Positions 3,082 to 34,862 of a stretch of DNA of 64,000 bases are shown piece by piece (within the stretch, counting starts at the first letter, position 1; the number at the start of each line of letters is the position of its first letter). The stretch is from Afipia sp. (lineage in GTDB: Bacteria > Pseudomonadota > Alphaproteobacteria > Rhizobiales > Xanthobacteraceae), in the NCBI GenBank assembly GCA_041905905.1, contig JAYRKE010000009.1, forward strand, positions 70,842 to 134,841, written 5' to 3'. Below the pieces are notes generated by a model that saw nothing but the letters and a program-made list of their open reading frames with translations, did not search any database and had not been told where the DNA came from. The position numbers were made by a program, and so were the translations under genes.

Positions 3082-4200
3082 TCATTGGAGGCGTCCTCGG
3101 ACGAATACCGTCGCCATCGTTAGCGTGGCCAAGGCGATGATCGCCAGCGGCCACAGGCTAGCGAGAATGTCACCGGGCGGCATGGCTTTGAGAAAGCTGC
3201 CTTCGACAATGATGAGGAAGTGGGTCAGCGGAATGGCCTGGGCCAGCCATTGCAGGACCACTGGCATGTTTTCTACCGGTGTAGCAAAGCCGGACATCAG
3301 TACCGCCGGCACGCCAATGGCGAATGCACCCAGAATGGCCTGCTGCTGCGTCATGCTAACCGCGGAAATCATGAGGCCGATGCCGACCACCGACAGGATG
3401 AATAGCACCAGGCTCGCAAGCAGCAACCCGAACGAGCCGGTAAAGGGAATGCCGAACAAAAACACGCCTGCACTGATCATGAAAAGACCCAGCAGGGTGC
3501 CGATCGCTAGCGCCGGCAGTGACTTTGAAATGATGATTTCCGGCGTTGAGGTAGGCGACACCAGTAACTGGTCGAAGGTGCCCAACTCGCGTTCGCGCGC
3601 AATCGACAGCGAGGTGATGAGCAGCGCGCTGAACAGCGCCAGAATACCCGTAAGACCGGGTACGATGAACCAGCGGTAGACCAGGTTCGGATTGAACCAG
3701 TGACGCACGACCACAGGTGTTAGCGCTTGCGCGTCGGGCACGACTTCGGCGCTGACATCGGCCGCTATGGTGGACAGATAGGCGACAGTGATCTGACCGG
3801 AGTTGCTGCGCCGGCCATCGACCAGCACCTGTGTGCGGCCGCTGTCACCGGCAGCAATCGTGCGTGAAAAATCGACTGGGATGGCAAGCGCGGCGATCAC
3901 CTCGCCTCGGTCGATCAACTCGTGTAGATGCCGCTGGCTGTCCACGTGCCGGACTTGGGTGATGAAGCGGGCGCTATTCAGGCGCTGTACCAGTTCGTGC
4001 GACCAGCGGCCCGCATCCTGGTTATACACGGCGATGTCGACATTGCGCACTTCCAGCGTTGCGGCAAAAGCGAACACGAGCAGTTGCAGGATGGGCGGCA
4101 CAAACACCACCATGCGGCTGCGCGGATCGCGTAGGACGCTGAGAATCTCCTTGATGAACTGCGCCCGCAATCGGGTGAAGCTGAAGATGGAGCTGGGCAT
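3082..4200 (-). CDS. ybhR: ABC-2 type exporter permease (YbhR-like)
   Basis: WFNPNL, IARERELGTFDQLLVSP, MSGFATPVENMP motifs; start taken at ATG 4200 (MPSSIFS). Confidence 0.9.
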   Translation of the reverse strand: MPSSIFSFTRLRAQFIKEILSVLRDPRSRMVVFVPPILQLLVFAFAATLEVRNVDIAVYNQDAGRWSHELVQRLNSARFITQVRHVDSQRHLHELIDRGEVIAALAIPVDFSRTIAAGDSGRTQVLVDGRRSNSGQITVAYLSTIAADVSAEVVPDAQALTPVVVRHWFNPNLVYRWFIVPGLTGILALFSALLITSLSIARERELGTFDQLLVSPTSTPEIIISKSLPALAIGTLLGLFMISAGVFLFGIPFTGSFGLLLASLVLFILSVVGIGLMISAVSMTQQQAILGAFAIGVPAVLMSGFATPVENMPVVLQWLAQAIPLTHFLIIVEGSFLKAMPPGDILASLWPLAIIALATLTMATVFVRGRLQ

Positions 4201-4204
4201 GGGC

Positions 4205-5374
4205 CTACTCCAGGTTCTTGCGTGTGGCGCGCTGGGCAAGGATGAAAAACACGACACCGATGGCAGCCATCGCCAATAGATTGCGAGTGAATACCGTCCA
4301 GATATCTCCGGCCAGGAACACCGTCTTGAGCGATTCGACGAAGTAGCGCGCCGGAATCAGCCGGGTAATGGCGCGGATCGGTGCCGGCATGGCGTCAATC
4401 TCGTACAGGAAGCCCGAGAGCATGAAGGCTGGCAAAAAGCCAGTGAACAGCGCGATCTGCGCCGCCAGAAACTGGTTGCGCGCCAGCGATGAGATGAGCA
4501 GACCTTGACCCAGCGCCGGTGCCATGAACACCGCCGACAGCAGTAGCAGCGCTGCCAGCGAGCCGCGCAGCGGCACACCACACCCGAACACGGCCAGCGC
4601 TGCCGCACCCAACGTGGACAGCATGCCGAGCACGAAATACGGCAGTAGCTTGCCGATCAGGATTTCTACCACCGAGGCGGGCGTGGACAGCACGGCCTCC
4701 ATGGTGCCGCGTTCCCATTCGCGCGCCACCACCAGCGCGGTCAGCATGGTGCCGATGATGGTCATCACAATGGCGATGGCGCCGGGGATCAGCGCGCGGC
4801 GGCTCTCGAGTTCGGGGTTGAACCAGTAGCGCGGCTCCAGCACCACGGCCTGGGCGGGCGCTGCAACATCAAGCCCCGCGCGCCAGCTTTGGACCACACC
4901 CCGGGCATAGTTTTCGACGTAGTTGGCGGTGTTGGGATAGGAGCCATCGGTGATGATTTGCACCAGCGGTTCACTGCCCCGCTGGGCCAGACGTCGCTCG
5001 AAGTCCTGCGGGATCACCACGTAGCCACGCAACTCGCCGGAGACGAGCTTGTCGGCCACTTCGCGCCGGTCGTGGGCAAAGTGCGCATCCAGAAAGCGGG
5101 TACCGGAAAAAGCGGCAGCCAACTCTTGCGCGGCGGCGCCGGGTGATTCCAGCACTACGCCGACGCGGACATCCTTGGCATCCAGCGACACTGCATAGGC
5201 AAACAGCAGCAGCAAGACCACCGGCAACACGAACGCGATCAGCAGCGTCGACGGGTCGCGCAGCGCCTGCAGGCTTTCTTTGTAAACCAGTGCCGTGAGG
5301 CGCTGCAGGTTGAAGCGGCGCAGGCTGGCTCGCCTCGCACTATCTCCGTCCTTGGATCGTGGGGCGGCGTTCAT
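4205..5374 (-). CDS. ybhS: ABC-2 type exporter permease (YbhS-like)
   Basis: RDPSTLLIAF, WFNPELES, AREWERGTMEAVLSTP, LSGFLYEIDAMP. Confidence 0.9.
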   Translation of the reverse strand: MNAAPRSKDGDSARRASLRRFNLQRLTALVYKESLQALRDPSTLLIAFVLPVVLLLLFAYAVSLDAKDVRVGVVLESPGAAAQELAAAFSGTRFLDAHFAHDRREVADKLVSGELRGYVVIPQDFERRLAQRGSEPLVQIITDGSYPNTANYVENYARGVVQSWRAGLDVAAPAQAVVLEPRYWFNPELESRRALIPGAIAIVMTIIGTMLTALVVAREWERGTMEAVLSTPASVVEILIGKLLPYFVLGMLSTLGAAALAVFGCGVPLRGSLAALLLLSAVFMAPALGQGLLISSLARNQFLAAQIALFTGFLPAFMLSGFLYEIDAMPAPIRAITRLIPARYFVESLKTVFLAGDIWTVFTRNLLAMAAIGVVFFILAQRATRKNLE

Positions 5375-27394: not shown

Positions 27395-27746
27395 GCGGAA
27401 GGGCCCCCGGCTCGCTGGCCTCGACCGTACCGATCGATGCGCCAGACGCGCCGAACAGACCGACGATCTGCGTGGCGCCAAGCAAGATGCCGGCGACCAG
27501 GACGACGTACATTAGCCGCCGCGCGAAATCGTTGAGCTCGCCGCCGAAAATGAGCATGCCGCCGGCGACCGCGACCGCCGCCAGCGCGATGAAGCCGGCG
27601 ACAGGACCGGTGATCGATTGCTGAATCTGCTGGAGCGGACCTTCCCAAGGCAGGCCCCCTCCCCCGCCCGCCAATGCGGGTTGCACAGCGAGCGACAGCG
27701 CGACACATGTGAGGAGACCAAGTGCTAGGCGACGTTCAGGCGACAC
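27387..27746 (-). CDS. trbC: Pilin TrbC (VirB2)
   Basis: Signal peptide then [31 protein letters not shown]. Confidence 0.9.
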
Positions 27747-28698
27747 GTTGCTCCTCCTCGCGGCAAGATTGGATTCGATATTCACCGTGAGCGAAGCCCT
27801 CGACGTGAAGGATGTCGCGCACGATGCGGCCACGCGCGGTCTTCTCGATCGAGACAATCAGGTCCACGGCTTCGCCGATGACGGCTTGCATCTGCTGCTG
27901 ACTTGCTTCGGCTGTGAGCTGCTCAAGCCGTGTCAGCGCGGACATCGCCGAATTCGCATGAACTGTGGTGATGCCGCCGGGGTGGCCGGTGTTCCAACTT
28001 TTTAGCAGCGTCAGCGCAGCGCCGTCCCTGACCTCGCCAACAATGATGCGGTCGGGACGCAATCGCATCGTCGACTTCAACAGCCGGCCCATATCGATCG
28101 TATCGGTCGTATGAAGCGCTACGGCATTGTCGGCGACGCATTGCAACTCGGCCGTGTCCTCGAGGATCACGATGCGATGCTCCGGCGCGGAGGCGACCAT
28201 CTCTGCGATTACTGCGTTGGTGAGCGTGGTTTTGCCGGAGCCTGTGCCGCCCGAGATCACGATGTTCATCCGCGAGGTCACAGCGTTGCGGATCATGCGT
28301 GCCTGATGCTCTGTCATGATCCGATCGCGCACATAGGCGACGAGTGGGATCACCTGCGACGCGCGCCGACGAATAGCAAAGGTCGGTCCGGACACGACCG
28401 GCGGCAGCAGTCCTTCGAAACGATGTGCGCCGATCGGCAACTCACCGGAGACGATCGGACGTTCGTCGTCGACCTCGGAATTGAGCGCATGGGCGACGCT
28501 GCCGATGATGATCTCGGCCGCGGCGTTGCTCATCTGACCGACGCGGGCGATGCCCTGCCCGAGGCGCTCAACAAACAGATGCCCGTCGGGATTGCACATG
28601 ACCTCGACGACGCTCGGATCGTCGAGCGCCGTGCAGATCGTGTCGCCGAGCGCCTCTTGCAGCTTGCGGACGAGACGCGGATGAGAGCGCAGTTGCAC
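27736..28698 (-). CDS. trbB: P-type conjugative transfer ATPase TrbB (VirB11)
   Basis: [38 protein letters not shown]. Confidence 0.95.
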
Positions 28699-28713: not shown

Positions 28714-29340
28714 CTACGCCGCAGAGCGGCGCAGGCCGCCTAGGTCGGATCGGTAGCCCGGCGGCCGCACCGATGCGAAGCTGGCGTCATCGGCCGGAAG
28801 CGCGCCGGCAATGCTGAGCGTCTCGCCAATCATCCGCGGTTCGCCGAGCCGCCGCATCGGCCAATGGGCGCGGTTCAGTAGCCGCTCGAAGCGCACGTCC
28901 GTCGCTGTGACGATCTCGCGGTAGCCCTCCCCCATCGACCATTCGATGATGGCGGCGAACAGCGTCAACGTCGCGTGGTGCAGGCCGCGCGCCGCCACCG
29001 CCTCAGTCGCGCCAGTGTCGACACAGAAGCGAGAGCTCTCGATCATCCCCGGATGCGCGTCGAGGCGCCCGCCGGCCAAGAGCTGTGGGAAGGCATCGGC
29101 CAGCATGGTCGGGCCAGTCGCCGGCAGGAGCCGGGCACACCCCAGCACCGGCCCCCGCTCGGCGACCACGAGGATGTACACCGGGTTCAGCTCGTCGAAT
29201 CGGTCGGTCTCAACGCCGTCCGCGATCTCAACATCCCAACCCAACCGTCCGCCGAACACCCTCGCCCTCAGACGGTGCATTTCGGTGAGCAGCGCGCCGA
29301 ACGCGCCTTTGTCTTCCGGCCTGATCGCAATCGCCCGCAT
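28714..29340 (-). CDS. traI: Acyl-homoserine lactone synthase TraI (LuxI family)
   Basis: MHRLRARVFGGRLGW, ETDRFD, GCARLLPATGPTML, ESSRFCVD; first gene of the trb operon. Confidence 0.93.
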   Translation of the reverse strand: MRAIAIRPEDKGAFGALLTEMHRLRARVFGGRLGWDVEIADGVETDRFDELNPVYILVVAERGPVLGCARLLPATGPTMLADAFPQLLAGGRLDAHPGMIESSRFCVDTGATEAVAARGLHHATLTLFAAIIEWSMGEGYREIVTATDVRFERLLNRAHWPMRRLGEPRMIGETLSIAGALPADDASFASVRPPGYRSDLGGLRRSAA

Positions 29341-29408
29341 CGTGTTGCCCCCGCCATTCACTTCGATCTCAGGCGACAAGACGAACACGCGGGTTTCGGT
29401 CTGTCAGA

Positions 29409-29521: not shown

Positions 29522-29741
29522 CCGCCTTGCGGCGAGGGAACACTCCGCACATACGCAGTAAGCGATTGAGATATAGGGCAGTCATGGAGACGCTCGGCTG
29601 GTCGACCGACGGCGTCACGCCGAGCGATTAAGGTTTCGTTAACCCTATTCTCCTTGCCACGCCGGGAGAATCGCACATACTGGCGCTAAATTGGGTTAGG
29701 TGCCGCATTCTGGCGCTATTTTATTCTCGGAGTCGATTAAA

Positions 29742-30944
29742 ATGGGTGCGCTTCCACCTTTCGAGTTTGACGAGAAGATCTTGGCCCAGGGCGCTGAGAT
29801 CTCCCGCCGTCTCGACCAGCTTCGGAACGAAAAATTCCCTCCCGACGCCAAGAAGACGCTTCGGCGTTTCCCAATGGCGGAGGTCGCTCACTATCTCGGA
29901 ATCAGCTCCAATAACCTGAAACGACTTCATTTGGAGGGCAAAGGACCAGAACCTCAGCAGGAAACCGGAGGACGACGGTTCTATACAGCCGAGCAAATGA
30001 CGGAACTTCGTCACTACCTCGATAAAAACGGACGGTCCGATGCCAAGCAATACGTCCCGTGGCGCAAGCCTGGCGAGAAGCTTCAAGTCATCGCGGTCGT
30101 TAACTTTAAGGGTGGCTCCGGAAAAACAACGACGGCCGCACATCTCGCTCAGCACCTTGCATTGACGGGCCATCGCGTGCTCGCGATTGATCTCGACCCG
30201 CAAGCATCGCTTTCGGCTCTTCACGGTTTCCAACCCGAGCTTGACGGCAACCCCTCTCTCTTTGACGCGATCCGATACGATGACCAGCGTCGGCCGATCG
30301 CCGACATCATCTCTCCCACGAATTTTCCGCTCTTGGAGATCATCCCAGCCAATCTCGAGCTGCAAGAATTCGAGTTTGAAACGCCTGTGGCGATGCAAGA
30401 TGAAAACCCGGAAATACAAATCCAGGGCAAACGATTCTACAACCGGCTAGGCCACTCGCTGTCGGAGATCGATGACCGTGTGGACGTTGTCGTGATCGAT
30501 TGTCCCCCTCAACTCGGATTTCTAACCCTCACCGCCCTCACCGCCTCGACATCTGTGCTCGTGACGGTTCATCCGCAGATGCTGGATTTGATGTCGATGA
30601 GCCAGTTCCTGCTCATGCTCGGCTCCTTCGTCAAAAACCTCAGAAAAAGCGGGGCGCCGGTCAAGATCGATTGGTTCCGATACCTGATCACTCGGTACGA
30701 GCCTACCGACGTGCCGCAAGCTCAGATGCTCGGCTTCATGCAGTCGATGCTGGTCGAGGAAATCTTGAAGAACCCGATGCTGAAGTCCACGGCGGTTTCG
30801 GACGCGGGTCTGACGAAGCAAACGCTGTACGAGGTTGAGAAAGCAAGCTTCAACCGCGAGACCTACGACCGCGCGATCGAAGCCCTCGACGCTGTCAATT
30901 TCGAGATTCAAGGCCTGATCCATCGTGCATGGGGGAGGCTATGA
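29742..30944 (+). CDS. repA: Plasmid partitioning ATPase RepA
   Basis: N-terminal HTH, deviant Walker A KGGSGKTT, AIDLDPQASLS, IDCPPQLG, PQMLD. Confidence 0.95.
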   Translation: MGALPPFEFDEKILAQGAEISRRLDQLRNEKFPPDAKKTLRRFPMAEVAHYLGISSNNLKRLHLEGKGPEPQQETGGRRFYTAEQMTELRHYLDKNGRSDAKQYVPWRKPGEKLQVIAVVNFKGGSGKTTTAAHLAQHLALTGHRVLAIDLDPQASLSALHGFQPELDGNPSLFDAIRYDDQRRPIADIISPTNFPLLEIIPANLELQEFEFETPVAMQDENPEIQIQGKRFYNRLGHSLSEIDDRVDVVVIDCPPQLGFLTLTALTASTSVLVTVHPQMLDLMSMSQFLLMLGSFVKNLRKSGAPVKIDWFRYLITRYEPTDVPQAQMLGFMQSMLVEEILKNPMLKSTAVSDAGLTKQTLYEVEKASFNRETYDRAIEALDAVNFEIQGLIHRAWGRL

Positions 30945-31016: not shown

Positions 31017-32012
31017 ATGGCTCGTAAGAACCCCTTCGCCAAACTCCTGGATGCTGATGCCCGGCCGGCGGATCACGCTGCTGTCGAGTATGCCGCCAAA
31101 GGCGCATCACGCACGATCCTGAGCACGCTAGACGAGATGGCAGCGCGCGCCGACCAACTGGCAGCCGGCGAGGCAATCGTCGAGATCGACCCAAACCTGG
31201 TCGACCCATCGTTCGTCCGCGATCGCAGAGCCGAGGACGAGAAGGAGTTCGAAGAGCTCCTAGAGGCAATCCGCGAGAACGGTCAGAACTCACCGATTCA
31301 GGTCCGCCCTCACCCAAGGTCGCCCGGGCGCTACATGGCTGTGTTTGGCCACCGCCGCATCCGTGTCGCAAAGACGCTTGGTCGCAAAGTGCGAGCCGTG
31401 GTGAAGGAGATCGCGGACCGCGAGCACATCATCACGCTGGGACAAGAGAACTCTGCGCGCGCTGACGTGCCGTTTATCGAACGTGCGCTGTTTGCCGCCG
31501 ACGTAGCGCGCCTTAAGCATGACGAGGACAACTCCATCGTTCTGAAGGCCCTATCCGTCGACCGGCAGACACTGTCCAAGATGCTGTCCGTGGCGAGTCT
31601 TCCTGCCGCCGTGCTGGAGGCTATCGGTGAGGCCAAGGGCGTCGGACGCGATCGCTGGTATGAGCTCAAACTGCTGATGGACAAGCCGTCCAATCACGAT
31701 CTTGCGGTCGATGTGATCGGTGAAGACGCTTTCCGGGATCTCTCCAGCGAAAGCCGTTTCGATTGGCTCGTCCAGCGTCTCAAAGCGGGTCGGCCGACGA
31801 AGCGAAAGCGATCTGCGACGGAGAAGCGCAAATGGGTGCCCGCCAATAGCTCGATGTCCGCTGAAATAATCGCGGACACGAGACGCTTCACCCTTGCAAT
31901 CAAAGCCAAGGGCGCAGAGGCGCGTGAGTTCGGCAACTACCTCTCAGAGCACCTGGACCGCCTTTACGAGGCGTTCCAGCAGGACTCGGCACACAGCAGA
32001 AAGGAACCGTAA
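31017..32012 (+). CDS. repB: Plasmid partitioning protein RepB (ParB family)
   Basis: IDPNLVDPSFVRDR, GQNSPIQVRPHP, FGHRR, GQENSARAD. Confidence 0.95.
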   Translation: MARKNPFAKLLDADARPADHAAVEYAAKGASRTILSTLDEMAARADQLAAGEAIVEIDPNLVDPSFVRDRRAEDEKEFEELLEAIRENGQNSPIQVRPHPRSPGRYMAVFGHRRIRVAKTLGRKVRAVVKEIADREHIITLGQENSARADVPFIERALFAADVARLKHDEDNSIVLKALSVDRQTLSKMLSVASLPAAVLEAIGEAKGVGRDRWYELKLLMDKPSNHDLAVDVIGEDAFRDLSSESRFDWLVQRLKAGRPTKRKRSATEKRKWVPANSSMSAEIIADTRRFTLAIKAKGAEAREFGNYLSEHLDRLYEAFQQDSAHSRKEP

Positions 32013-32016
32013 CCGC

Positions 32017-32068
32017 AAAAGAAAAAGGCCCCCGAAACAAATTCCGGAAGCCCTTCTCACAGATTGAC
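32017..32068 (-). ncRNA. repABC counter-transcribed RNA (ctRNA, incompatibility)
   Basis: Minus-strand promoter TTGACT (32103-32098)-17 bp-GATTCT (32080-32075); hairpin plus U-run terminator (plus strand AAAAGAAAAAGGCCCCC...GGAAGCCCTTCT); canonical repB-repC spacer. Confidence 0.75.
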
Positions 32069-32171
32069 ACCTAGAGAATCGCATTTCCGCGAATCGCAGT
32101 CAAGAGTCTCCAAGCGTCACGACGTCGTTTTCGGCGAGCTGATTTCTTTTGCCTAGCGATAGGTGAAGGAA

Positions 32172-32297
32172 ATGGACAGAAATTTTGTGACGCCGCCCTA
32201 CGGGTGGCGAACGACGTCGCTTGCCCAAACGTCCAATGCAGCGCTCGATCGACGAGTAATATCCGCTGTCGAAGCCAGCGGAGGCGGCCATGAATAA
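32172..32297 (+). other. 41-codon upstream ORF resembling a canonical RepC N-terminus
   Basis: AGGTGAAGGA RBS; MDRNFVTPPYGWRTTSLAQ... resembles the RepC start MxxxxVTTPFGRRxxTLA; its TAA (32295-32297) overlaps the repC ATG (32290). Confidence 0.55.
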
Positions 32298-33792
32298 ACA
32301 CGCCGCCGGCCTGCGCAAATCATCGTTGGAATCTCTCGGCGGCCAGCAGCTCGCCCGCGGCTTCCGCGAGGGCACCGACGCTTACGTGGTCTCTCGCACG
32401 GGAGCGCTGCGCGTGGCGAAGCGTGCTGCGGCGGCGATGGGCCTGAAGGCTGCGAAGATCGCGCTGATCGACCAGCTTTTCGCGGCCTCTAAGCCGGGAG
32501 ATTGGGGCGTTCCGGGCCAGGCACCGATCGTGTGGCCATCCAATGCCAGCTTGGCGCGCGGCCTTGGGGTATCCGTCTCAACGCTGAAGCACCACCTCAA
32601 GGGCCTCGTGCAGGCCCGCCTCATCACCTACAGCGACCATCCAACCTACCAGCGACGTGGCCGCCGCGACGCCGCCGGCAAGATCGTCGAGGCCTATGGC
32701 ATCGATCTGTCGCCGATCGCGGCACGCTTCGCAGAGCTGACCGACATGGCCGAGGCGGCCGAGTACCAGGCTCGTGAATGGAAGCGCCATTCCTACCGCC
32801 GCACGGTGCTCCGCAAGGAGATCCAGTCGCTGATCCTCAGCGCCACCCAGCACAAGCTGCCGGGCCCGTGGAGCCATCACCAAGCGCGCCTGGACGTTCT
32901 GAGGGAGCAGAGGCCGGCTGGTCTTGATGAGTTGGTCGCCCAGGTCGAGGGGCTCGAGGAGCTTCTGGAGGCTGTGGAGGAGGCCTACCAGACGGGATTT
33001 GAGGAACAAAATTTCAATACCGCGGTATCAAAATTTCGGCCCCTACAAACTACAGCCGAATCCCTTAACTCTGAAAAAAGTAATCAAAACCCTGAACAGC
33101 GTCGCGCTAACGCGCGACAAATTCTTTCCCCGGAGGCCTTCGGCCTTTCAGCCGAAAAAAAGTCTGACGCTGATTCTGCGCCCCGACAATCGACAAAACT
33201 GGCCTCTAGAGCCCTGGAAGAGGATGTTCAGTTCATTTCCTTGCCACTGATGCAGTCGGCCTGCCCGGCGGTTGAGCAATACGTCCCAGGCGCCTTCGCG
33301 GATTGGCGGACATTGCGCGAGGCGGGCCGGACGCTGTGCGTCTCGGTCGGCATCAACCCGCAGGTCTGGCAGGAGGCAGTCGGCATCCTGGGGCCTGATC
33401 TGGCGGTCGCCGCGGTCGCCGTCACCGTGCAAAAATCGGAGCTCGGCGCCGTGTCCAAGCCTGGGGCCTATCTGCGCACGCTGGCGCAGCGGGGCCGGGA
33501 CGGCAAATTGCACATCAGCCGGTCGCTATTTGCCTTGGCCAAGTCCGGTCAGGCGGCCGATATCGGCGACGATATGGGGTCGTTGGAAACGCCGGAGTTT
33601 CCGGCGATGGGCTCGATTGCCTACACACACTGGCGGGATGTGGTCCGCAATAACGCTCCAGCGCCGGCACCTGACTGCGACACCGTTGCCCGCGCGTTCC
33701 GCGGCTGGGCAAAGACCCGCGGCATCGACCTCACGGCGCCGAATATCGAGAAGGTGTTCGCCGGATTCTGCAAGAAGTGGAGGGTGAATTGA
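32290..33792 (+). CDS. repC: Plasmid replication initiator RepC with a C-terminal extension
   Basis: PIVWPSNASLARGLGVSVSTLKHHLKGLV, RRDAAGKIVEAYGIDLSP, VSKPGAYLRTL; internal AT-rich segment about 33000-33200. Confidence 0.88.
   Translation: MNKHAAGLRKSSLESLGGQQLARGFREGTDAYVVSRTGALRVAKRAAAAMGLKAAKIALIDQLFAASKPGDWGVPGQAPIVWPSNASLARGLGVSVSTLKHHLKGLVQARLITYSDHPTYQRRGRRDAAGKIVEAYGIDLSPIAARFAELTDMAEAAEYQAREWKRHSYRRTVLRKEIQSLILSATQHKLPGPWSHHQARLDVLREQRPAGLDELVAQVEGLEELLEAVEEAYQTGFEEQNFNTAVSKFRPLQTTAESLNSEKSNQNPEQRRANARQILSPEAFGLSAEKKSDADSAPRQSTKLASRALEEDVQFISLPLMQSACPAVEQYVPGAFADWRTLREAGRTLCVSVGINPQVWQEAVGILGPDLAVAAVAVTVQKSELGAVSKPGAYLRTLAQRGRDGKLHISRSLFALAKSGQAADIGDDMGSLETPEFPAMGSIAYTHWRDVVRNNAPAPAPDCDTVARAFRGWAKTRGIDLTAPNIEKVFAGFCKKWRVN
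33000..33200. other. Putative oriV inside repC
   Basis: Visibly AT-rich tract within repC with GANTC sites and a 28-bp dyad AAATTT-ca-ATACCGCGGTAT-ca-AAATTT (33009-33036). repABC origins are known to lie inside repC. Confidence 0.6.
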
Positions 33793-33800
33793 CGCCCGGC

Positions 33801-34862
33801 TCAGAGGCCGGCGGCCTTCGTCAAGTTGACGCGGAAACGGTCGCGGCGGCGCTGGTAGCCCCGGGTCTGCTCGGCGCTGGCATGGCCGAGCTGCTTCTGG
33901 ACGTAGCGCTCGTCGACCTCAGCCGAGGAGGCGAGGCCGGCGCGCAGGGAATGACCTGCGAATTTCCCCTTCCGGTCGCCTTCGGGCAGATCGGCCCGCA
34001 CGCCGGCGGCGAGGGCGGCGGCCTTGACCAAACGCGCCACCTGCTTGTCGGTCAGCCGGTCCGGCCCGACGTCCTTTCCGCCGCCGCGGACCCGGCGGAA
34101 CAGCGGTCCGTGCCCGATTCGGGCGAGCTTGAGCCAGGTCTGCAGGGCAACAACCGGGCAGGTGGCGTCAGACGAGCCGCGGCCGATCTCGACCTCGCGC
34201 CAGCCCGTTTTGCCGCGCAGGGTGACGACCATGCCGTCCTTGAGGATCTCGCCCCAGCCGCTGCCGTCCTCGGTCTGCTCCGGCCCGACATCGAGGCCGA
34301 CGATTTCGGAGCGCCGCAGCCCGCCGGCAAAGCCCAGCAACAGCATGGAGCGGTCGCGCAGGCCGCGCAGGCTGCCGCGATCGAGCGTCTCGAGCATGGC
34401 GATGATGTCCTCAGGCAGAACGGCGTCCTTCTTCACGGGCGGGCGGCCGTGGGTGCGCCGGATGCCGGCGAGCACGGTCGCGACGTGGCGGTCCTGGCGG
34501 TCGAAGGCGAGGCCGCGCTGGCGGAACTGCCAGCTCAGGGCGGACAGCCGCCGCTCGATCGTTGACACGGCATCGGGCTTCGCGCCTGCTTTCCCGGCGG
34601 CGCAGGCGGTGATGTAGAGCCCGATGGTCTGGACATCCGGGGGCAGGGGATCGAGGCTTTGCCGCCGGCACCAGACACTGTAGTGCCGCCAATCCGCCCC
34701 ATAGGCGCGGCGAGTGTTCTCGGCGCTGGACGCTTTGATGTAGTCGCGCGCCCGGTCGACGAGTGGCGCGAGATGAGCCGGCATGCGGGGAGGGGAGGTT
34801 TCCGTCACGTCCCGCACCTTGTCCGGAGAGTCATCGCCAGGGGAAGGTGATCGCGTGCTCAT
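33801..34862 (-). CDS. Tyrosine recombinase (plasmid multimer resolvase, RinQ-like)
   Basis: SAENTRRAYGADW, RDRSMLLLGFAGGLRRSE, TLRGKTG, GHSLRAG, QLGHAS...TRGY. Confidence 0.92.
   Translation of the reverse strand: MSTRSPSPGDDSPDKVRDVTETSPPRMPAHLAPLVDRARDYIKASSAENTRRAYGADWRHYSVWCRRQSLDPLPPDVQTIGLYITACAAGKAGAKPDAVSTIERRLSALSWQFRQRGLAFDRQDRHVATVLAGIRRTHGRPPVKKDAVLPEDIIAMLETLDRGSLRGLRDRSMLLLGFAGGLRRSEIVGLDVGPEQTEDGSGWGEILKDGMVVTLRGKTGWREVEIGRGSSDATCPVVALQTWLKLARIGHGPLFRRVRGGGKDVGPDRLTDKQVARLVKAAALAAGVRADLPEGDRKGKFAGHSLRAGLASSAEVDERYVQKQLGHASAEQTRGYQRRRDRFRVNLTKAAGL

Follow-up and report, generated by a model that had tools for sequence, protein, structure and literature searches.

The 64,000-nucleotide (nt) stretch of an Afipia sp. 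contig analysed here (referred to as the window) carries a repABC-type replication locus in which the partition genes repA and repB precede the initiator gene repC, all three in one orientation. Between repB and repC lie the two RNA elements of the canonical operon, the antisense ctRNA gene and the S-element. In the canonical arrangement the AUG at the end of the S-element is the start codon of RepC. Here, that AUG (ATG 32172) opens a 41-codon open reading frame (ORF) instead, which we call the leader, and the start of RepC lies at 32290, in a different frame. It is by this departure that we define the variant described below. An initial annotation, made from the letters of the window alone, had reported the ctRNA control region, the 41-codon ORF and its overlap with the RepC start, and all of them lie where it had put them. 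The features of the locus are collected in Table 1.

Table 1. Features of the replication locus and its surroundings, in window coordinates (SD, Shine-Dalgarno sequence; aa, amino acids).
Feature	Position	Strand	Basis or remark
trbB	27736-28698	-	
traI	28714-29388	-	
repA (ParA-type partition ATPase)	29700-30944	+	Pfam AAA_31, CbiA, MerR_1
repB (ParB-type partition protein)	31017-32012	+	Pfam RepB PF07506, ParB_N
ctRNA gene (antisense RNA)	32015-32068	-	RF00489 and promoter read by eye
Putative ctRNA promoter, sigma-70-like	32075-32103	-	-35 TTGACT 32103-32098, 17-nt spacer, -10 GATTCT 32080-32075
S-element	32108-32174	+	RF00490, 47.6 bits, gathering score 47
Leader ORF, 41 codons and TAA (MDRNFVTPPYGWRTTSLAQTSNAALDRRVISAVEASGGGHE*)	32172-32297	+	S-element AUG to TAA 32295-97
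Conserved RNA hairpin in leader head	32191-32209	+	arms 32191-98 and 32202-09
Crossover zone	32200-32232		informative-site scan and segment identities; pA-like left, L033/pHCG3-like right
repC SD GGAGG	32280-32284	+	within leader codons 37-38, 5 nt before ATG 32290
Predicted hairpin at repC start	32280-32314	+	32280-89 pairs with repC codons 6-9 (32305-14)
repC, long-subfamily initiator, 500 aa (MNKHAAGLRKSSL...)	32290-33792	+	Pfam RP-C, RP-C_C
A+T-rich dip in repC, candidate oriV	33000-33100		composition profile

The ctRNA_p42d model (RF00489) matches the minus strand from 32057 to 32015 with 47.5 bits (E 1e-8), just under its gathering score of 50, and the match takes in the terminator hairpin and its U-tract. 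The 5' end of the ctRNA, near 32068, is placed from the putative promoter, whose GTCAAG block is kept in alignments of relatives. Because a consensus promoter/terminator scanner gave no call on 31900-32400, this promoter is an assignment by eye, and for the ctRNA terminator we rely on the match to Rfam. The RNA elements of the window match the ctRNA_p42d and S-element models of Rfam only. Minimum-free-energy and centroid folds both predict a 14-bp S-element hairpin (arms 32141-32155 and 32160-32173) that covers the ribosome-binding site of the leader (AGGTGAAGGAA) and the first bases of its AUG. In the canonical model, pairing of the ctRNA with the repB-repC leader RNA leads to formation of a terminator and a sequestering stem-loop, the Rho-independent terminator lying upstream of the ribosome-binding site, and without the ctRNA the SD and the AUG are free (PMC6090056).

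The leader ends 8 nt into repC, with the overlap reading cATGAATAA (ATGAATAA). RepC begins 118 nt past the leader start and lies in the +1 frame relative to it; in the RepC frame only 10 open codons precede the ATG, the nearest stop upstream being TAA 32257-59. The first ~20 codons of the leader resemble the beginning of canonical RepC, as the initial annotation had remarked, and comparison at the DNA level bears this out. A blastn search with 32000-32420 matched 1,555 plasmid records, and among the matches listed the alignments lie under annotated repB/repC genes and end at window ~32226-32238, 55-67 nt into the leader. The leader head is thus homologous to the 5' ends of ordinary repC genes, as a vestigial canonical-RepC head in which TPPYGWR derives from TTPFGRR. 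The 41-aa peptide has no Pfam or NCBIfam domain match, the homology of its head being seen at the DNA level and by eye only.

RepC itself is complete at its N-terminus, and the claim that it has a different N-terminus of its own holds, since both family databases align it from the N-terminal end. The Pfam model RP-C (PF03428, E 1.5e-48) covers residues 9-183 with model positions 1-172, and RP-C_C (PF11800, E 1.4e-27) covers residues 318-418. Positions 11-392 of the NCBIfam model RepABC_RepC (NF040974) correspond to residues 7-416, with G7 on model position 11. In canonical RepC this position is the Gly of the TTPFGRR head, while the window RepC reads AAGLRK there. The locus therefore contains the RepC head twice, once in the leader, where it is of canonical type, and once in RepC itself. 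Matches of the protein in Pfam and NCBIfam are restricted to RepC and helix-turn-helix families. Its NF040974 score of 242 bits (cut-off 150) compares with 543 bits for the canonical RepC of Ancylobacter polymorphus pA, and the window RepC is a divergent member of the RepC family, belonging to a long subfamily.

We find that this layout is not a peculiarity of the window. A RepC-alignment pattern scan over one genome per prokaryote species returned 35 loci, and for the 17 that are linked to repB the 600 nt around the RepC start were aligned and parsed; an order-level genome search added only 2 further genomes among 400. In 16 of the 17 repB-linked relatives, whose RepC proteins are 47-90% identical to that of the window, a leader of 32-50 codons starts at the S-element AUG and ends 4, 8, ~11 or 14 nt past the RepC ATG. 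The check for leader conservation in relatives that the initial annotation had proposed is thereby answered in favour of conservation. The layout is common to at least 16 replicons of several Hyphomicrobiales families, and the leader-bearing set includes pHCG3, a Pelagibacterium plasmid, a Hyphomicrobiales metagenome-assembled genome (MAG), 11 further genome loci and a Roseibium locus. pHCG3 of Afipia carboxidovorans, with a RepC 63% identical to that of the window, has a 37-codon leader (MLNAPMTTSSGRRAMMLALMKRQLPHLKATVRGGGHE) and the same GGAGGCGGCCATGAGTAG junction; the Pelagibacterium plasmid has a 35-codon leader with an ATGA overlap, and the 40%-GC Hyphomicrobiales MAG a 44-codon leader with a 14-nt overlap. 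The leader ORF is unmarked in the RefSeq annotation of both pHCG3 and the Pelagibacterium plasmid.

Comparison of these loci reveals which properties of the leader are kept. The stop-start overlap is always present, and GGAGG lies 5-7 nt before the RepC ATG, invariant in all 14 aligned junctions. From its AUG to that of RepC the leader frame contains no stop in the 15 sequences scored (15/15), the 40%-GC relative included, while the other two frames of the same sequences contain 40 (+1) and 14 (+2) stops. Overlap, spacing and open frame together support, at the level of comparison, the translational coupling to the leader that the initial annotation had suggested. The RepC start always lies 6 codons before a conserved G-L-R motif. 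The frame of RepC relative to the leader is +1 in 7 relatives and +2 in 8, and sometimes differs between close relatives; because this relation varies, selection is on the stop-start overlap rather than on a fused product. Towards its 3' end, in turn, the second half of the leader diverges fast and takes insertions and deletions. Window and L033, a Xanthobacteraceae MAG, are 90-91% identical at the repC start and only ~64-65% identical over the last 57 nt of the leader, and both leaders are exactly 41 codons long with no indel between them. Translation of the leader, and not the peptide, therefore seems to be what selection keeps.

The seventeenth locus, from Devosia elaeis S37 (NZ_LVVY01000121.1, L028/L013, L013:1429-2952), carries the head in frame with a long RepC. 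This vestigial canonical head reads MALPETSVHGRRT...; the resulting 507-aa protein has two heads, and this natural control shows that an in-frame head fusion is tolerated. Two further loci stand somewhat apart. Roseibium sp. L023 (NZ_CANMNP010000059.1, 3167-3319) has a 50-codon leader (MLSRTFFSLYKRGV...YRGGAHG*) with an 8-nt overlap; it lacks a RepC-like head, and the terminator-like element that follows repB is a different one. In L036 (Mesorhizobium sediminum KCTC 42205) the repC tblastn span, 3501-4996, contains 6 stops when translated in one frame, from which we take this repC to be frameshifted or a pseudogene; the leader and the junction are intact despite the damaged repC.

The alignments also point to two RNA structures within this short region. 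The hairpin in the leader head has 8 base pairs, with arms formed by the T-T-P/S and G-R-R codons and a loop formed by the Phe codon of TTPFGRR. Pairing holds in 88% of its alignment cells, compared with 25-52% for slid controls; one of the pairs covaries (CG, UA, UG and GC), and the loop codon varies freely among leaders. We note that the one canonical repC aligned, that of Ancylobacter pA (L002:4976-4994), also encodes this hairpin. In ordinary repABC operons as well, the hairpin formed by the codons of TTPFGRR may be an element of the repC translation-initiation region that has so far escaped notice. The second hairpin is predicted at the repC start in most relatives, and its loop holds both the AUG and the leader stop. 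On the ungapped alignment the paired fraction of cells is 76%, compared with 37-53% for slid controls, and in 3 pairs both partners change. The repC SD has a mean predicted unpaired probability of 0.10, compared with 0.25 when the flanks are shuffled, and its occlusion is clear in 5-7 of the 12 sequences folded. Folding therefore suggests that structure occludes the repC SD in part of the set; occlusion as a universal property is only partly supported, as three of the 12 behave like shuffles.

The replicon of the window is a recent chimera whose crossover lies within the leader, at ~32200-32230. RepA is 86% identical to that of Ancylobacter pA, 45% to that of pHCG3 and 53% to that of L033, and RepB follows the same order (71%, 34% and 37%), whereas for RepC the identities are 30% with pA, 63% with pHCG3 and 90% with L033. 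A three-way DNA alignment with L033 and pA, which has a canonical operon, gives the same picture for the region upstream of the leader: identity to pA is 71% over the repB 3' end, 92-98% over the ctRNA region and 86% over the S-element, compared with 43%, 73-85% and 53% to L033. Informative sites are pA-like up to ~32222, with a few mixed ones after 32181, and L033-like from ~32224, and the megablast match to pA stops at window ~32229. The chimeric replicon proposed by the initial annotation is thus supported, with RepAB pA-like, RepC L033/pHCG3-like and a switch of informative sites inside the leader.

The accompanying claim that a different repC displaced the original while keeping its regulatory head is supported as well, by the canonical-type head in the leader and the complete N-terminus of RepC. 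It needs refining in that the layout is old and shared, and the displacement was not an event of this plasmid. In the simplest history, a repC of the long lineage would have replaced the canonical repC body behind its control region, leaving the head out of frame or, in Devosia, in frame. The event specific to the window is a later exchange of the repAB-ctRNA module, in which the leader head served as a patch of homology linking ordinary repABC operons with long-RepC replicons. An exchange of this kind has also happened elsewhere, since L033 and L014 are 94% identical in their upstream regions and only 65% at their RepC starts.

Other boundaries are visible nearby. The tyrosine integrase gene downstream of repC (33801-34862, minus strand) encodes a product 91% identical to that of pHCG3, while the adjacent RepC is only 63% identical, and this difference places a second recombination boundary close to the 3' end of repC. 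In pHCG3, too, repC is followed by integrase, DUF1403 and ScpB genes, and in the Pelagibacterium plasmid by those for the integrase and DUF1403. Likewise, L015 and L039 have near-identical RepC proteins in the tree and differ in the first 100 nt of repC (73% identity), in their leaders (44-72%) and in their upstream control regions (62%), which points to another crossover further inside repC.

Our preferred reading, to which we assign a probability of about 0.7, is that these replicons form a conserved class in which the ctRNA/S-element switch gates the leader and RepC is reached by translation coupled to it through termination-reinitiation. A stop-start overlap of this kind is the classic geometry for termination-reinitiation and for the unmasking of downstream starts. 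When the ctRNA is scarce, the mRNA would be read through and the ribosome-binding site of the leader exposed. Ribosomes translating the leader would open up the fold in which the repC SD tends to be caught, would stop 5 nt past the repC AUG, and would either re-initiate there or pass the site to a new ribosome. With the ctRNA paired to the mRNA, transcription would terminate and/or the leader ribosome-binding site would be sequestered; the leader would then not be translated, and hence little RepC would be made. What counts in this scheme would be the act of translating the leader and not the encoded peptide, and RepC output would follow leader translation much as in the tap-repA system of R1. 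The present analysis shows the anatomy of the locus, its conservation, the chimerism and the position of the crossover; we infer leader translation and coupling from the comparison of relatives, and ctRNA control would apply here by homology to p42d and pTiR10. On the evolutionary side, the leader head would serve as a homology patch through which modules of repAB, ctRNA and S-element and modules of repC plus origin have been re-assorted repeatedly, the window joining a pA-like left module to an L033/pHCG3-like right module.

Several points weigh against this reading. An open frame of 40 codons is not rare in 60%-GC DNA (~0.3 per sequence), and the 15 scored relatives are phylogenetically non-independent. 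In the RepC tree the long RepCs group together, separate from canonical RepC (support 99/99), but the deep forks within this group are left unresolved and the tree does not settle whether the leader-bearing replicons are one clade, so that a single and a multiple origin cannot be told apart from it. The Devosia elaeis fusion indicates that an out-of-frame leader is not obligatory. The GGAGG of repC is strong and ideally spaced and could initiate independently, and its predicted occlusion is the same as in shuffles for pHCG3, the Pelagibacterium plasmid and L015. The ctRNA may act mainly through upstream transcription termination, which would control RepC regardless of leader translation. The leader could be a passive remnant, the scar of an old repC replacement, with RepC translated from its own GGAGG at 5-nt spacing and the ctRNA acting only by upstream attenuation. 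Occlusion not above chance in 3-5 of the 12 folded relatives fits this account, as does the canonical Rho-independent terminator preceding the ribosome-binding site (PMC6090056), and a Pseudomonas replicon replicated unaffected with most of a comparable leader deleted (PMC5304414). However, a scar should decay, and the leader frame is free of stops in all 15 sequences in which the other frames have accumulated them; even with indels that change the frame relation, the leader stop is in every case 4-14 nt beyond the RepC ATG, and the overlap survives in Roseibium, where the RepC-like head is gone. We consider a passive remnant unlikely.

Two further explanations were considered. A functional micro-peptide, presenting the free RepC N-terminal motif (TTxxGRR) and acting in trans, for example on RepC or the origin, would account for the retention of the T-T-x-x-G-R-R pattern in most leaders. 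This conservation, however, is accounted for by the RNA hairpin with its covarying pair and its free fourth codon, while the C-terminal half of the peptide is unconserved, the Roseibium leader lacks the motif and the motif of the window is degraded to TPPYGWR; we regard such a peptide as improbable. Finally, a programmed ribosomal frameshift, or a frameshift of sequencing or assembly, could join the two ORFs into one two-headed protein of ~540 aa. The in-frame head tolerated in Devosia elaeis shows that such a protein could be accommodated, and the 10 open codons upstream of the RepC ATG make a shift at 32260-32295 formally possible. Against it, RepC lies in the +1 frame in some relatives and in the +2 frame in others, close relatives of each other included, without a slippery motif in common; its ATG is at the same place in all, and RepC fits the family models from its N-terminal end without the leader. 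The two ORFs recur in sixteen independent assemblies, which with the differing frame relations rules out a conserved programmed frameshift, a pseudogene and the sequencing frameshift that the initial annotation had allowed for. Of all the explanations considered, a frameshift is one to which we give almost no credence.

The relay proposed for the window can be set against known replication systems. Canonical repABC operons, such as those of R. etli p42d with its incα ctRNA and A. tumefaciens pTiR10 with RepE, share with it the gene order repA-repB-repC in one operon, a ctRNA gene that follows repB directly on the other strand and has the same terminator hairpin, an S-element hairpin sequestering a ribosome-binding site and AUG, and an A+T-rich putative origin in repC; Ti-type plasmids also have traI-trb divergent from repA. 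The window differs from them in that the S-element AUG belongs to the leader, and in that RepC, 118 nt further on and in another frame, has its own SD and a second copy of the N-terminal head. The solitary-repC family of the pRmeGR4a type (S. meliloti pMl1, Aminobacter p1) shares the RepC lineage, at 46-49% identity, and the long C-terminal end, and falls in the same well-supported group, which also holds several solitary Phyllobacteriaceae and Rhizobiaceae loci. These replicons have a ctRNA-like gene and an S-element-like hairpin upstream of repC, as the window does. However, they lack repAB and have a MarR-type gene upstream, whereas repAB lies directly upstream in the window, which is thus not a member of the family; and the S-element-like AUG is itself the start of their RepC, which has an in-frame extension of 13-15 aa, without a TTxxGRR head or an overlapping leader. 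The solitary repC family is itself already known (PMC10194956).

In plasmids of the IncFII type (R1 CopA-tap-repA) and the IncIα/IncB/IncL/M type (repY-repZ), an antisense RNA governs whether a short leader ORF overlapping the rep start is translated, and that translation in turn determines Rep synthesis. The overlap of leader stop and rep start, 8 nt in the window and 4-14 nt in its relatives, is shared with these systems, and the logic we propose is the same, with coupling in the present case suggested by comparison. Initiator family, antisense RNA and hosts (Enterobacteria) differ, and there is no relationship in sequence or fold. An activating pseudoknot was not found in the window, where no test aimed at one was made. 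The window is therefore an analogue of the IncFII/IncI systems and not a member of them; unlike theirs, its leader can still be recognised as the former 5' end of an initiator gene that was displaced. For R1, translation of the leader and not its product sets Rep synthesis, in the form in which PMC5304414 relays the finding (Blomberg 1992, as cited in PMC5304414). The Pseudomonas REx-C/REx-R modules and the exchange of control regions between IncIα and IncFII are natural chimeras like the window, with a joint near the leader-rep boundary; there, a control module of antisense RNA, stem-loops and leader ORF is re-assorted with different rep genes (PMC5304414). Unlike REx-C/REx-R, the window belongs to another replicon family, its control module includes the whole partition system (repAB), and the homology patch of its crossover is a remnant of the initiator gene.

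Going beyond the preferred reading, one may suppose that this alphaproteobacterial replicon class independently evolved an IncFII/IncI-style relay, in which the antisense RNA gates an obligatory leader built from the 5' stump of the displaced repC, and that the stump, still homologous to ordinary repC genes, acts as a universal recombination adaptor for swapping complete initiator-plus-origin cassettes between partition and incompatibility backbones, from which new combinations of replicons would arise. We offer this fuller version tentatively, at a little less than even odds.

The surroundings of the leader complete the picture of the replicon. The longest repA ORF starts at GTG 29700; because M1 of pA RepA, the closest homologue, aligns with residue M15 of the window protein, ATG 29742 is the likelier start. 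The genes trbB and traI are divergent from repA/repB, an arrangement similar to that of Ti plasmids, and TraI of the window is only 57% identical to that of pA. At its C-terminus the window RepC carries an extra segment of ~80 aa (residues ~424-500, window 33560-33792) that is kept throughout the long-RepC group, solitary repC replicons included. Invariant residues in an alignment of 6 sequences include F437, P438, W448, R453, P457-x-P459-x-P461, F470, R471, W473, F493 and C494, and the segment is a genuine subfamily domain rather than something fused on locally. In the A+T-rich dip within repC the GC fraction falls to 0.40, compared with ~0.65 in the flanks, which agrees with the pattern of p42d, whose origin is an A+T-rich region within repC and whose RepC works in cis (PMC3155836). 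The origin of the window replicon thus probably lies within the coding sequence of its own RepC. Elsewhere in the same genome, contig C7 holds two RepC-like genes ~3 kb apart (81348-82397 and 84697-85722, L009-L011) whose products are 29-33% identical to the window RepC; the genome therefore has additional repABC- or repC-type replicons.

In a full-text literature search of incomplete coverage, no account came up of a leader ORF lying between the S-element and repC, whether in repABC or in repC replicons, and our claim of novelty is provisional for that reason. Incongruent histories of RepA, RepB and RepC and in-situ gene displacement are already known; the window adds a sequence-level view of the in situ displacement of repC, earlier inferred only from incongruent trees, with a crossover point that can be located to ~30 nt within the vestigial head (PMC2783167 for the earlier work). 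In practical terms, the finding bears on the building of repABC vectors, the prediction of incompatibility in mosaic plasmids and the correct calling of repC starts. Genome annotation pipelines leave the leader ORF unmarked.

Megaplasmids for symbiosis, virulence and catabolism, as well as chromids, are carried by repABC replicons in rhizobia, agrobacteria and related bacteria. Models of how the copy number of these replicons is controlled come from two plasmids, where the repC start itself is the direct target of the ctRNA/S-element switch. The layout described here would represent a conserved alternative: the target of the switch would be a leader ORF, with the stop-start overlap as the only way to RepC. 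If the coupling is true, it would add a translational relay to repABC control, convergent with the IncF/IncI relay of enterobacterial plasmids.

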